Source of the DNA: a phage
Assembly: GCA_026209155.1 (NCBI GenBank)
Contig: GCA_026209155.1_3056.1
Strand: one strand, 5' to 3'
Length of the DNA: 64,000 bases
The notes beneath the pieces are model-generated. The model was not told the origin of the DNA and did no database searches. It saw only the letters and a program-made list of their open reading frames with translations. Position numbers and translations under genes: made by a program. Of the stretch, positions 25,898 to 55,604 are shown piece by piece; the first letter of the stretch is position 1; the number at the start of each line of letters is the position of its first letter.

Positions 25898-26533
25898 TCA
25901 CAGTTCAGATGCTACGGTGATTACAGCTTCAATGTTTTCTGCTGAGCGTTTAATGTCAAGATACACATTACCGTTTTTAGCGATTTTACATGACATTCCG
26001 ATATCAATAAATTTCTGAATATGATGTTCCATCATTTTGTATCCAAAAATTCGCATATTTCCATTATTGTTAATTTCAAAATTGCGAATTCCGTGAGTGC
26101 GTTTTTCTAAAATGGCAAGATAATTACTACGATAAGTTTCAACCTTTTTAAGAACAAATCCATTTTCATCTAAAAGTTTTAGCATGTGGTCTTTATCTTC
26201 TTCCATATCGGAAGTAATCTCACGAGCTTTACGAGTTGCTCGTTTTTTCAGTAGTTCCGGAGCATTTTCTTGCGCGTATAAAGTTGCTGCATTTGAAATA
26301 ATATCCTGAGCTTCACCAGTAATGATTAATCCATCACCAGATTTCTCCACCAGGCCTTTTTTAATCAATACCCCAATATTACTATTAACTACTGCGTTAC
26401 CTAAATCTGGATGCACCTCACGAACTTCTGCAGCTGTAATGAAATCTTTCTTAGCAATAGTAATTAAAATCGCAGCAGTTTTTTCATTCAGAACATCGTT
26501 AGAAGCTTTGATGATGTAAGTTACTTTAGACAT
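25898..26533 (-). CDS. motA: Middle-transcription activator MotA
   Basis: 211 aa as in T4 MotA; N-terminus MSKVTYIIKASNDVLNEKTAAILITIAKKDFITAAEVREVHPDLGN. Confidence 0.9.
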   Translation of the reverse strand: MSKVTYIIKASNDVLNEKTAAILITIAKKDFITAAEVREVHPDLGNAVVNSNIGVLIKKGLVEKSGDGLIITGEAQDIISNAATLYAQENAPELLKKRATRKAREITSDMEEDKDHMLKLLDENGFVLKKVETYRSNYLAILEKRTHGIRNFEINNNGNMRIFGYKMMEHHIQKFIDIGMSCKIAKNGNVYLDIKRSAENIEAVITVASEL

Positions 26534-26660: not shown

Positions 26661-26810
26661 TTACTGCATGACTGTGATAACTGTCATGATAACACGTTGA
26701 ATTCCGAACGCAAGAAGACCTCCTGCTACGGCTGGAACAACGCCTAAACCCGCTAGTAAAATGCCGCCAGATACTAATGCTGCGCTTGTAATACCTATAA
26801 ATGGACTCAT
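26661..26810 (-). CDS. Small hydrophobic Gly-rich membrane peptide (49 aa), not in ORF track
   Basis: ATG overlaps gene 52 stop (ATGA); hand-translated MSPFIGITSAALVSGGILLAGLGVVPAVAGGLLAFGIQRVIMTVITVMQ. Confidence 0.45.
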   Translation of the reverse strand: MSPFIGITSAALVSGGILLAGLGVVPAVAGGLLAFGIQRVIMTVITVMQ

Positions 26811-28139: not shown

Positions 28140-28280
28140 TTACCATACTAGTGAATGTAGTGCCATAATAACATCAGAAATGAAAAGCACGACTTGAATT
28201 AATCCGAACATTACTCCATAATATAGTGCTACCAATAAAGCAGCAAGGGCTAATGAATAGCCCAAGATTTTCTTAATCAT
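28140..28280 (-). CDS. Small hydrophobic membrane peptide (46 aa), not in ORF track
   Basis: Hand-translated MIKKILGYSLALAALLVALYYGVMFGLIQVVLFISDVIMALHSLVW; between ac and 52. Confidence 0.4.
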   Translation of the reverse strand: MIKKILGYSLALAALLVALYYGVMFGLIQVVLFISDVIMALHSLVW

Positions 28281-28428
28281 TAGATAACAACGCAAATGTT
28301 AAATATGCACACATACCCTGAGCTAAAGCTTGCGAAAACACGCTGCTGACATCAATACAGATAGTTAAAACACATGCTACTATCCAACAAATAAATGAAA
28401 TAACTCCTAATAATTTTGCGATATTCAT
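28273..28428 (-). CDS. ac: Small membrane protein, 51 aa, probable Ac (acridine sensitivity)
   Basis: Hand-translated MNIAKLLGVISFICWIVACVLTICIDVSSVFSQALAQGMCAYLTFALLSND; 51 aa equals T4 Ac length; between stp and 52. Confidence 0.5.
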   Translation of the reverse strand: MNIAKLLGVISFICWIVACVLTICIDVSSVFSQALAQGMCAYLTFALLSND

Positions 28429-29246: not shown

Positions 29247-29361
29247 AATTCACCTCAAGGAGTATAAAATCCAAATGCAGTTGTTGACCATCCCATCCAA
29301 TATGGGAAATTTGCGCCAATGTAAAACATGAGAATATAAAACCAACCGCTCAGCAAATTCA

Positions 29362-29580
29362 TCATTTTACACCATTCCAAATTGTTTCAACCACAGATTT
29401 CAAACCATTTTGGTGAATATCCATTCCGACAACTGCCATCAAATAGATTCCAACCACAACTGAACCCAAGGAGAAAATCAGCATGAAAATGAATAAAGCT
29501 GGAAAAATATTATCGAAAAACCATTCAATAAATGTAAAAGCACTGCGTTTACGCTTCATATTTTCCTCACATAAATCCAA
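29362..29580 (-). CDS. Hypothetical small membrane protein
   Basis: 72-aa ORF with hydrophobic core ALFIFMLIFSLGSVVVGIYLMAVVG. Confidence 0.5.
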   Translation of the reverse strand: MDLCEENMKRKRSAFTFIEWFFDNIFPALFIFMLIFSLGSVVVGIYLMAVVGMDIHQNGLKSVVETIWNGVK

Positions 29581-29680
29581 AGTAAGCGTTTAATACATCA
29601 ATCATTAAAACGATTGGGAATATACTCAAAACTACTAGTATTATAACTACATTCCATATAGCTTTAACAATCTTTTTCAT
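29567..29680 (-). CDS. Small membrane peptide (37 aa); track ORF 29567..29815 trimmed to the internal Met after the promoter
   Basis: MKKIVKAIWNVVIILVVLSIFPIVLMIDVLNAYFGFM; upstream part of track ORF is read-through of promoter DNA. Confidence 0.45.
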   Translation of the reverse strand: MKKIVKAIWNVVIILVVLSIFPIVLMIDVLNAYFGFM

Positions 29681-29923
29681 TTTCTGTTCCTCCGTAGTTG
29701 ATAGGGTAATAATACCACAGAGGAACAGTCTTGTAAACAACTTTTTTAAAAATATTCGTAATAAATGTGAATGCCAATCACTACTGCCGAAACTTGCGCA
29801 ACCCACCATGCACAAGCAATAAGTACAGAATTCAAAATTTTCATAATAACCTCATCACAAAAGTAAATGTTAAACAAATTAATGGAATACTAATTAACCA
29901 AATAAAACACCACCATAATGAAC

Positions 29924-30196
29924 TCATAGTTCAATCTCAGCGATTTTCATTTCATTACTATTAATAGCCGCTTTAAGACTATCTGAAAGAATTACATCCC
30001 AGTGGTCATTCATATGACCATTAACTAAACGTGTAATTTCTTCGGGAGTTGAAAAATAAGGCGTATCAGACTCCCAATGCGATAGTCCCAAGCGAGTATA
30101 AATCATACCTTCATCATCGCTAGAATATTCAACTGACACAAACTCATCAGTTATTTTATGTTTAGCGTAATAAAATTTAAATTTCATTTTACTCAA
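29924..30196 (-). CDS. Hypothetical protein
   Basis: 90-aa ORF. Confidence 0.5.
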   Translation of the reverse strand: MSKMKFKFYYAKHKITDEFVSVEYSSDDEGMIYTRLGLSHWESDTPYFSTPEEITRLVNGHMNDHWDVILSDSLKAAINSNEMKIAEIEL

Positions 30197-30399
30197 TAAT
30201 CCGCTAAAAGATCGACGATTGCATCACGAAGACACTTATTCGCAATACGTTTAAGAGCAATTTCAGTTTCTGGAGCATTTTGAATAATCATTGAATTCAA
30301 TTCAGCCTCAGCAAACTGAAGTTCTTTAACTAATTCAGCTTTATATTTTCCTTGCCCTTTCTTAGCTTTTGCTCGTTTTAATTCAGCTGTAGTAAACAT
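30193..30399 (-). CDS. Hypothetical protein (68 aa); track ORF 30193..30498 trimmed to the Met after the promoter
   Basis: MFTTAELKRAKAKKGQGKYKAELVKELQFAEAELNS...; upstream codons lie within the promoter element. Confidence 0.5.
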   Translation of the reverse strand: MFTTAELKRAKAKKGQGKYKAELVKELQFAEAELNSMIIQNAPETEIALKRIANKCLRDAIVDLLADY

Positions 30400-30419
30400 T
30401 TTATTCTCCAAATCCGTAT

Positions 30420-30465
30420 CAGTTGATAGTTGTATAGTACCACAGTCCTTGTGGTATGTAAACCA
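30420..30465 (-). promoter_or_regulatory. T4-type early promoter immediately downstream of denB
   Basis: Minus-strand GTTTAC-17 nt-GTACTATAC with conserved leader CTATCAACTGATAC. Confidence 0.5.
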
Positions 30466-53867: not shown

Positions 53868-54716
53868 TTAATCAACTGCTATTGGATGAATAGCATTAAA
53901 CTTATGAAATGCTTCTGATTTTTCTTTACGAGAAATACACATGCGAAGAACCTTTAATGGCTCGTCTTCTTCACCCAACGATTTTCGTTTTTCAATATTA
54001 GAAGTTTTCCAACGAGCTTGCTCTGGAAACTCTCTATTGATTTGTTCAAGCGCTCTATTATGTTTAGAATTACTACGAATTGAACTGCACCCGCCGGGAG
54101 CGTGTGATTTTCCAGATACAACTAGATATTTGAACAAGGCCAAATGCGGATAACCTTGATTAATTAAATTGAGAAATGCGTACATATCTTCACATAAATC
54201 AATTTTTCCATACCCAATTTGTTCTGTCGTAAGTTTTCCGAGGTCATACCATGTATTCGTGAATCCATATGAGTTTTCACGATAATTACCCCAAGATGAA
54301 GTAATTTTAAAAATAGGTAGACGAGCATGGCCATGATAATACCCACAATCCATGGCATCCTCAACGTATTGAATTAATTCATAGAACTGTTCACGAGTTA
54401 ATTGATTAATTTTATCTACGCGCCGTTTATCGTCTCTCTTTCGTATTGAACTCATACGAATAGTAGTATCATCATCAATCATCCAGATTCGTTGACCTGC
54501 ATACATGTCAGTAATTGCTTTACGAGTACCGGCAATTCCGTTTACATCATCAGGAATAGTTATAATTTTAGCTCTAGACCCATAGGCATCATAATAAGCT
54601 TTTTCTTCGTGTTCACGCACTACAATATGTGGTTCATAATCAGTCGGAAACATATCAAGGGCAGAAACTGCCCCTACACGTTGATAGCTTGGAATTACGA
54701 ATTGAATCATTTCCAC
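53868..54716 (-). CDS. Putative DNA glycosyltransferase (DxD-type) at the beta-gt locus; likely beta-glucosyl-HMC alpha-glucosyltransferase
   Basis: 282 aa with IWMIDDDTTI DxD motif; does not resemble remembered T4 beta-glucosyltransferase; sits between uvsX and 42. Confidence 0.55.
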   Translation of the reverse strand: MEMIQFVIPSYQRVGAVSALDMFPTDYEPHIVVREHEEKAYYDAYGSRAKIITIPDDVNGIAGTRKAITDMYAGQRIWMIDDDTTIRMSSIRKRDDKRRVDKINQLTREQFYELIQYVEDAMDCGYYHGHARLPIFKITSSWGNYRENSYGFTNTWYDLGKLTTEQIGYGKIDLCEDMYAFLNLINQGYPHLALFKYLVVSGKSHAPGGCSSIRSNSKHNRALEQINREFPEQARWKTSNIEKRKSLGEEDEPLKVLRMCISRKEKSEAFHKFNAIHPIAVD

Positions 54717-55454: not shown

Positions 55455-55604
55455 TCAATTGATACATTCATATTTAACTTGTAACAGTAATAAACTCCAA
55501 CCTAAAATAATAGTTGGAATCATAAGAGGAACCGTTACACTATAGTATATACTTATTATAACCATCAAGATTAAAAGCAACACTGCTATAATTTTGCTTT
55601 TCAT
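55455..55604 (-). CDS. Small hydrophobic membrane peptide (49 aa), not in ORF track
   Basis: ATG overlaps imm stop (ATGA); hand-translated MKSKIIAVLLLILMVIISIYYSVTVPLMIPTIILGWSLLLLQVKYECIN. Confidence 0.4.
   Translation of the reverse strand: MKSKIIAVLLLILMVIISIYYSVTVPLMIPTIILGWSLLLLQVKYECIN

Follow-up and report, generated by a model that had tools for sequence, protein, structure and literature searches.

The window analysed here is a stretch of 64,000 nucleotides of phage DNA (contig GCA_026209155.1_3056.1 of GenBank assembly GCA_026209155.1), and we describe a block of very small genes on its minus strand, in the interval from denB to ndd. A 1.7-kb query around the locus matched 509 phage records at 90–98% identity, almost all of them Tequatrovirus, and, judged by these matches, the window is a T4-like phage of this genus. 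The minus-strand gene order is that of T4: motA.1, 52, 52.1, ac, stp, ndd, ndd.1 ... denB, denB.1, rIIB. Between denB and ndd, five micro-genes encoding 28, 32, 37, 65 and 35–36 residues lie head to tail, and gene order and sequence together identify the region as the ndd.6-ndd.5-ndd.4-ndd.2a/3-ndd.2 block of a T4-like phage:

29841..29927, minus strand: ndd.6, 28 residues, ATG at 29927, single helix, peptide MSSLWWCFIWLISIPLICLTFTFVMRLL
29746..29844, minus strand: ndd.5, 32 residues, ATG at 29844, single helix, peptide MKILNSVLIACAWWVAQVSAVVIGIHIYYEYF
29567..29680, minus strand: ndd.4, 37 residues, MKKIVKAIWN followed by a helix and an aromatic C-terminus, GGAGG 9 nt upstream
29362..29559, minus strand: 65-residue gene (T4 'ndd.2a' plus 'ndd.3'), KRKR N-terminus, one hydrophobic span, C-terminal GLKSVVExIWNG
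29255..29365, minus strand: ndd.2, 35–36 residues, aromatic-rich, GxNxPYWxGW motif

A first-pass annotation of the window had translated two of these peptides by hand and suggested a comparison with the T4 ndd.1–ndd.6 run. The comparison holds, as the two peptides are Ndd.5 and Ndd.6; both exist with exactly the sequences given, and the starts lie at 29844 and 29927, 2 bases from the values proposed. The 37-residue open reading frame (ORF) of that annotation is Ndd.4 (29567..29680), and its 72-residue ORF exists as the TTG-extended form of the 65-residue ATG ORF. The other coordinates it listed also hold ORFs, namely motA.1 (26661..26810), 52.1 (28140..28280), ac (28273..28428) and a 49-residue ORF (55455..55604). 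Its term 'unannotated' applies to the last of these; ndd.6, ndd.5, ndd.4, ndd.2, ndd.2a, 52.1, ac and motA.1 are all coding sequences in NC_000866. The peptides of the block are thus already known as T4 ndd.2–ndd.6 and have been annotated for decades.

Comparisons within the genus used an alignment of 20 Tequatrovirus sequences, consisting of the window and 19 others (T4, T2, T6, RB14, AR1, ime09, Sf25, others, and five IMG/VR contigs). Wider comparisons used iterated profile searches of 38 sources, namely T4, the window and 36 IMG/VR loci anchored on Ndd (46–95% identity). Every micro-gene start has a Shine-Dalgarno (SD) motif or an ATGA stop/start overlap with the gene before. The genes are tightly packed and translationally coupled, and form two units. 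The first consists of two ORFs of 68 and 87 residues, ndd.6 and ndd.5, joined by a 5-nt gap and ATGA overlaps; the ATG of ndd.6 overlaps the stop of the 87-residue ORF, and that of ndd.5, with a GAGG SD 5 nt upstream, overlaps the stop of ndd.6. The second, downstream of an internal early-type promoter, consists of ndd.4, the 65-residue gene (ATG start, GAGG SD 5 nt upstream), ndd.2 and ndd.1. The start of ndd.2 overlaps the stop of the 65-residue gene; since this first ATG reads ATA in 6 of the 20 sequences, the conserved start is the second Met (29362).

The five products are very similar to their T4 counterparts. Ndd.6 is identical to T4 NP_049886 (UniProt P39248) at 26 of 28 residues (93%), with two conservative differences, and is covered over residues 1–28 of 28 by phrog_8851 (E-value 4.3e-17). 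Ndd.5 differs from NP_049885 (UniProt P39247) by a single V/I exchange (31/32 identical, 97%), matches phrog_5011 over residues 1–32 of 32 (E-value 3.9e-26), and lies between ndd.6 and ndd.4 on the same strand, as in NC_000866. Ndd.4 is 92% identical to NP_049884 over 37 residues and belongs to phrog_3098 (E-value 3e-21); all its database relatives carry Pfam PF26889. The 65-residue protein is a member of Pfam DUF7248 (PF23906; E-value 3e-19, 69.3 bits against a cut-off of 27), its residues 6–63 aligning with profile positions 4–57 of 58, and it also matches phrog_2401. Ndd.2 is 97% identical to NP_049881 and is a member of phrog_4135. Overall, PHROG matches were obtained for all five peptides (E-values 1e-17 to 1e-30), and two of the five are also Pfam families. 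The genes ndd.2a, 52.1, ac and motA.1 likewise belong to PHROG or Pfam families, with 52.1 assigned to DUF7396.

Among the 38 T4-like sources, relatives of Ndd.4 occur in 34 (motif KxxKAIWN...FP...D...aromatic tail), of the 65-residue protein in 20 (C-terminal motif GLKSVVExIWNG), of Ndd.6 in 18 (WCxIWxxxIPxIC...K/R-L), of Ndd.2 in 16 (GxNxPYWxG), and of Ndd.5 in 7, all Tequatrovirus. Translated searches (tblastn) with Ndd.6 returned 664 phage records, 156 of them below 60% identity and of marginal significance only (listed examples, E-values 0.06–1). The same search with Ndd.5 returned 494 records, 490 at no less than 90% identity, and an exhaustive HMMER search over 1.84 billion representatives found no credible relative less than 91% identical; a weak match, P0019, proved to be an unrelated repeat protein. 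Within the reach of these searches, Ndd.5 is a genus-restricted orphan. Since 5,426 complete E. coli genomes yielded no related DNA, host mimicry and a prophage origin were dropped as explanations. The N-terminus of Ndd.4 (KKIVKAIWN, 29650..29680) and the C-terminus of the 65-residue protein (LKSVVETIWN, 29365..29400) have the pattern K-x-[IV]-V-x-x-I-W-N in common, which may be due to chance.

The ORFs are intact in 17–20 of the 20 Tequatrovirus sequences, and in four of them variation is concentrated at synonymous sites. The numbers of variable sites at codon positions 1/2/3 and the ratios of non-synonymous to synonymous variation (pN/pS) are 5/0/4 and 0.13 for ndd.6 (intact in 19), 2/1/10 and 0.10 for ndd.5 (20), 6/2/22 and 0.06 for the 65-residue gene (17), and 6/4/13 and 0.13 for ndd.2 (19). 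These ratios of 0.06–0.13 are close to that of the control gene ndd.1, whose protein has been detected (5/9/27, 0.11, intact in 20). Off-frame pN/pS is mostly above 1, and the third-position excess of variation is found in the annotated frame only. Peptide conservation also holds at 36–65% identity, where the DNA has diverged. The 673-nt stretch contains four same-strand ORFs of at least 28 residues whose hydropathy, measured as a 19-residue Kyte-Doolittle mean (KD19), is at least 2.0. Dinucleotide-preserving shuffles (3000 in number) contained 0.25 such ORFs on average and never more than 3. The first-pass annotation had taken such peptides for real genes, and SD sites and homologues were found for them. 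Thus, based on purifying selection, SD sites, ATGA overlaps and homologues in related phages, we conclude that the micro-ORFs are genuine small genes rather than chance ORFs.

The fifth gene, ndd.4, is intact in 19 of 20 sequences and has variable sites of 3/1/0, or 4 in 111 nt; its pN/pS of 0.89 says nothing, since it is based on only four variable sites. Deep peptide conservation is what marks ndd.4 as a probable coding gene. Among 19 Tequatrovirus sequences, 0 of its 37 third-codon positions vary, compared to 76 of 231 in the neighbouring small genes, and its nucleotide diversity is 0.015 compared to 0.03–0.06 for the neighbours. The fold of the ndd.4 mRNA is not significant (z-score −1.4), so that no obvious RNA structure accounts for the invariant synonymous sites. 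An Rfam search did not yield a family either; its only match, to potC, was a chance one below threshold (20.5 bits; gathering score 44).

The hydrophobic character noted in the first pass is borne out for four of the five peptides, each of which encodes one clear, strongly hydrophobic helix (KD19 2.2–3.1). The positively charged flanks of the hydrophobic peptides are one-sided. By the positive-inside rule, this suggests an N-in/C-out orientation for Ndd.4 (MKKxxK...), Ndd.5 (MK...) and the 65-residue protein (MKRKR...), and an N-out/C-in orientation for Ndd.6, whose sole charge is C-terminal. In Sf25 (L043, 624..812), a natural in-frame deletion joins Ndd.4 residues 1–31 to residues 35–65 of the 65-residue protein; the resulting fusion protein of 62 residues carries both PF26889 and PF23906, and is compatible with the same orientation of the two proteins.

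Two features lie immediately upstream of ndd.4:

29709..29738, minus strand: T4-early-type sigma-70 promoter, G-TTTACA, 17-nt spacer with TGn, TATTAT, preceded by an A/T-rich tract
29684..29728, minus strand: 15-bp hairpin, left arm 29714..29728, right arm 29684..29698

Of the promoter-like sites in the region, this one scores best (10/12 matches, with TG). All 20 Tequatrovirus sequences have it, and it recurs at the corresponding position in other genera. It matches the T4/PST early-promoter consensus TTTACW-N17-TAYWAT (PMC4122927), and shows the T4 early promoter features described elsewhere (PMC2988021); transcription would start here. The hairpin, which is the only significant stem-loop here, overlaps the promoter: its left arm coincides with the promoter spacer, its loop contains the −10 element, and the GGAGG of ndd.4 (29689..29693) falls within its right arm. 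Its predicted stability is −23.2 kcal/mol (z-score −5.0), and 0 of 200 shuffles were as stable. No terminator was predicted between the upstream genes and ndd.4.

Since insertions and deletions shift the MAFFT columns out of structural register, hairpins were compared by per-lineage folds with shuffle z-scores and by direct reading of the arms. In three lineages from other genera the arms differ in sequence, are mutually complementary and have the same layout: CATCTCCGGTGGTTG / CAACTACTGGAGATG in L007, CATCTCCATTAG / CTAATGGAGATG in L009 and CTCCGTTAG / CTAACGGAG in L017. Their z-scores range from −3.8 to −6.2; the hairpin of L024 is weaker (z-score −2.6), and that of L015 leaves the SD uncovered. 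In total, 7 of 9 folded representatives have an early promoter inside a hairpin ahead of ndd.4, and the hairpin masks the ribosome-binding site in five. As transcripts from the ndd.4 promoter itself would lack the left arm and read-through RNA would carry both arms, the hairpin would confine ndd.4 translation to transcripts from its own promoter. A near-identical cassette of ~60 nt lies upstream of T4 nrdC.8 (T4 53,880–53,950, L053).

In a T4 transcriptome and proteome time course (PMC9697503 Table S2), the transcripts of ndd.2–ndd.6, ac and stp are classed as 'early'. A genome-wide knock-down of T4 genes by CRISPRi-ART (dCas13d) scored ndd.1–ndd.6 all as 'Not Fit', with no fitness cost on the laboratory host (PMC11879866 supplement). 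Natural loss alleles also exist: the 65-residue gene has a nonsense codon in one T2 record, ndd.2 is frameshifted in slur11, ndd.4 is split in L014, and in Sf25 ndd.4 is fused in frame with the 65-residue gene. As knock-downs are neutral and natural knock-outs exist, we conclude that ndd.2–ndd.6 are dispensable for growth on laboratory E. coli.

We propose that each product is a single hydrophobic helix and would enter the inner membrane of the host in the first few minutes after infection. The inserted peptides would be accessory, conditionally useful factors, retained by selection for a benefit under conditions that are absent in the laboratory. They would most probably act by pairing their helix with those of a larger membrane protein of the host (or of the phage), as proposed for the neighbouring T4 peptide Ac; an action on host membrane proteins had also been suggested in the first pass. 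We put the probability of this account as a whole, that is, an ndd block of single-helix inner-membrane micro-proteins with putative membrane-protein binding and hairpin gating of ndd.4, at about 0.75.

Several points weigh against this account. Our literature search found no experiment on the ndd.x peptides, no measured target, phenotype or topology, and no paper assigning a function to any of them; nor did it find a T4 ribosome-profiling paper or anything specific on T4 small proteins. The link between Ac and AcrAB-TolC is itself only a proposal. Ndd.2 has a KD19 of only 1.17, so that its membrane helix is uncertain, and ndd.4, which hardly varies, has no synonymous/non-synonymous signal within Tequatrovirus. 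The hairpin is absent in L025 and L028, and could instead be a 3′ barrier for upstream RNA or a recombination site. Finally, the proteins of ndd.2–ndd.6 are given as 'NA' in the T4 proteome and, like those of ac and stp, were undetected, while Ndd and Ndd.1 were detected (PMC9697503 Table S2). This is a weak negative, as shotgun proteomics plausibly misses short, very hydrophobic peptides.

Alternatively, the peptides could be membrane-damaging or depolarising effectors similar to the type I toxins TisB, Ibs and Hok of bacteria or to holin-like peptides, perturbing the bilayer without a specific partner and so contributing to host shut-off. Peptides of 25–37 residues with a single very hydrophobic helix and no soluble domain would suit this role, as would their early co-expression with the host-takeover genes ndd, denB and stp. 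However, family-specific motifs are kept across genera (IPxIC in Ndd.6; KAIWN...FP...D in Ndd.4; GLKSVVExIWNG in the 65-residue protein), which fits specific contacts better than bulk membrane effects, and the knock-downs are neutral for infection. Toxicity data were not found in the literature, and a toxicity screen of a T4-related Yersinia phage (PMC6893735) has no bearing on the ndd genes. We therefore consider membrane damage an unlikely function.

It is also doubtful that the peptides act in superinfection exclusion or envelope repair beside Imm and Sp, altering the inner membrane such that DNA of later phages cannot pass, or resealing it after injection. The early expression and predicted inner-membrane location would agree with such a role, and a comparable tiny membrane ORF (55455..55604) is translationally coupled to imm. 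However, classical T4 exclusion phenotypes map to imm and sp, no genetic evidence points to the ndd peptides, and no similarity to Imm or Sp was noticed, though none was searched for. The remaining explanation, that the ORFs are incidental T-rich by-products of DNA kept for early promoters, stem-loops and promoter-early stem-loop (PeSL)-type elements in a hyperplastic segment with repeated promoter cassettes, would account for dispensable peptides with no protein detected, but is largely refuted by frames open in 17–20 of 20 genomes, the strong frame-specific synonymous excess in four genes with off-frame pN/pS mostly above 1, divergent homologues conserved at the peptide level at 36–65% identity despite diverged DNA, and hydrophobic ORFs far above shuffled sequence.

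Within the preferred account of accessory membrane peptides, Ndd.4 may be a special case. It is near-universal in Ndd-bearing T4-like genera, its promoter is buried in a hairpin in most of the lineages folded, and within Tequatrovirus it lacks synonymous variation. It could be more than an interchangeable accessory, namely a membrane effector of the immediate-early phase, gated in dose and time and directed at one conserved host target, such as a pump, a transporter or a membrane-bound defence effector. Its cassette would then be a so far undescribed way of gating the translation of T4 early genes. We regard this extension as improbable.

The T4 reference differs from the window within the block itself. 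It has a 1-nt deletion at codon 2 of the 65-residue gene (window 29545..29559; T4 ~166,620), where ATGAAGCGT becomes ATGAACGT, and as a result T4 has been annotated with 'ndd.3' (26 residues) and 'ndd.2a' (40 residues). The deletion is confined to X75802, AF158101 and NC_000866; the extra base is present in five other T4 records (OZ209023, OZ209057, HM137666, KJ477684 and KJ477685) and in more than 320 relatives. It probably reflects either an error of early sequencing or a mutation of a particular stock. In PHROG, ndd.3 stands as a singleton, and the corresponding ORF of the window is not assigned to any family. Similarly, the annotated start of the 42-residue T4 Ndd.4 is an ATG made by a T4-specific C>T change inside the hairpin, and the conserved start gives 37 residues.

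Annotation of the block in public records is uneven. The gene ndd.6 is missing from the records of T6, T2, RB14, AR1, PST, Sf25, slur11, PhiZZ6, FL44 and others, and ndd.5 is also missing from those of AR1 and PST. Several micro-gene products carry the name 'naphthalene 1,2-dioxygenase' or 'outer membrane protein', and 'periplasmic protein' has also been deposited; all three names are artefacts of prediction or propagation. 'Outer membrane protein', also the T4 product name, is an old localisation prediction that is not credible, as an outer-membrane location is implausible for a single α-helical peptide of 28–32 residues.

The window, PST, RB14, ime09 and others carry the 68- and 87-residue ORFs between denB and ndd.6 (29924..30399, minus strand). 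T4 has a deletion, through which its upstream leader is followed directly by the final eight codons of the 87-residue ORF. The layout of PST is that of the window, with ndd.5 and ndd.6 present and unannotated. An exchange of ndd.4/.5 for ORF268/269 has been described (PMC4122927, Fig. 6A legend); the PST sequence nevertheless carries ndd.5 and ndd.6. The SD region of the 68-residue ORF (30399..30409, minus strand) reads GGAGAATAAAA, and an early-type promoter lies upstream of it at 30434..30462. GGAGAATAAAA agrees at every position with the consensus site at which RegB/S1 cleaves T4 early mRNAs (PMC1702504).

One further small ORF lies outside the block:

55455..55604, minus strand: 49-residue hydrophobic ORF between imm and gene 42, its ATG overlapping the imm stop

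This ORF is a member of phrog_3610 and is intact in 13/13 Tequatrovirus sequences. It is also intact in T4, yet NC_000866.4 has no feature there (gap 26220–26372), and a 46-residue relative in Gaprivervirus VR25 is likewise unannotated. With a pN/pS of 0.39, selection on it is weaker than on the ndd genes.

Much of this amounts to the rediscovery of long-annotated T4 genes, so that little changes, and the observations on the promoter and hairpin and on the T4 reference are minor refinements. Gene callers drop ORFs of this size, and the gaps can distort comparative claims about gene exchange at this locus. Should any of the peptides prove to bind a host membrane protein, it would join the small group of phage micro-proteins whose targets are defined, and some T4 genes that are still 'hypothetical' would gain a function.

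Compared to known systems, the closest are T4 Ndd.5 and Ndd.6 themselves, whose genes have the same position between ORFs on the denB side and ndd.4, and the same ATGA-coupled arrangement; the window differs by the 68- and 87-residue ORFs upstream, which are deleted from T4. T4 Ac (51 residues, acridine sensitivity), whose gene follows three to four genes further down the run, resembles the ndd.x peptides in its very small size, single helix, early expression and membrane character, and is the sole member of the neighbourhood with a phenotype. It has no detectable sequence similarity to the ndd.x peptides and belongs to a separate PHROG. Expression of Ac renders E. coli sensitive to acriflavine, and Ac is proposed to interact with AcrAB-TolC and to block it (bioRxiv 10.1101/2025.06.30.662393; PMC13250531). 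Bacteria have small transmembrane regulators of their own, such as AcrZ, MgrB, KdpF, MgtS and similar (reviewed in PMC12648545). The ndd peptides resemble these in having fewer than 50–65 residues, one transmembrane helix (uncertain in Ndd.2) and no enzymatic domain; there is no homology, and the helix-helix binding mode is a proposal by analogy.

For the arrangement ahead of ndd.4, two comparisons can be made. For T4 e, soc, 49 and I-TevI, long transcripts contain a hairpin that masks the ribosome-binding site, whereas transcripts from the proximal promoter leave it free. The cassette of ndd.4 is similar in that its promoter is placed such that its own transcript would lack the 5′ arm pairing to the SD. 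In contrast, those promoters are late or middle, whereas that of ndd.4 is early and its gating is predicted. The second comparison is with the PeSL cassettes of T4-like phages, reportedly the subject of work by Arbiol in 2010. Comeau 2014 (PMC4122927) treats the ndd.4/.5 locus itself, and the PeSL cassettes described there also combine an early promoter (TTTACW-N17-TAYWAT), a stem-loop, an SD and a start codon in a hyperplastic region. The ndd.4 cassette has the same promoter, SD and start codon elements (TTTACA-17-TATTAT, GGAGG and ATG) and, like PeSL, recurs in the genome, upstream of nrdC.8. However, the published stem-loop is just upstream of the promoter (PMC4122927, Fig. 3 legend), a position at which ndd.4 has only the A/T tract 5′ of its −35 element. 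Here, the promoter sits within the hairpin, with its spacer as the left arm and the SD in the right arm.

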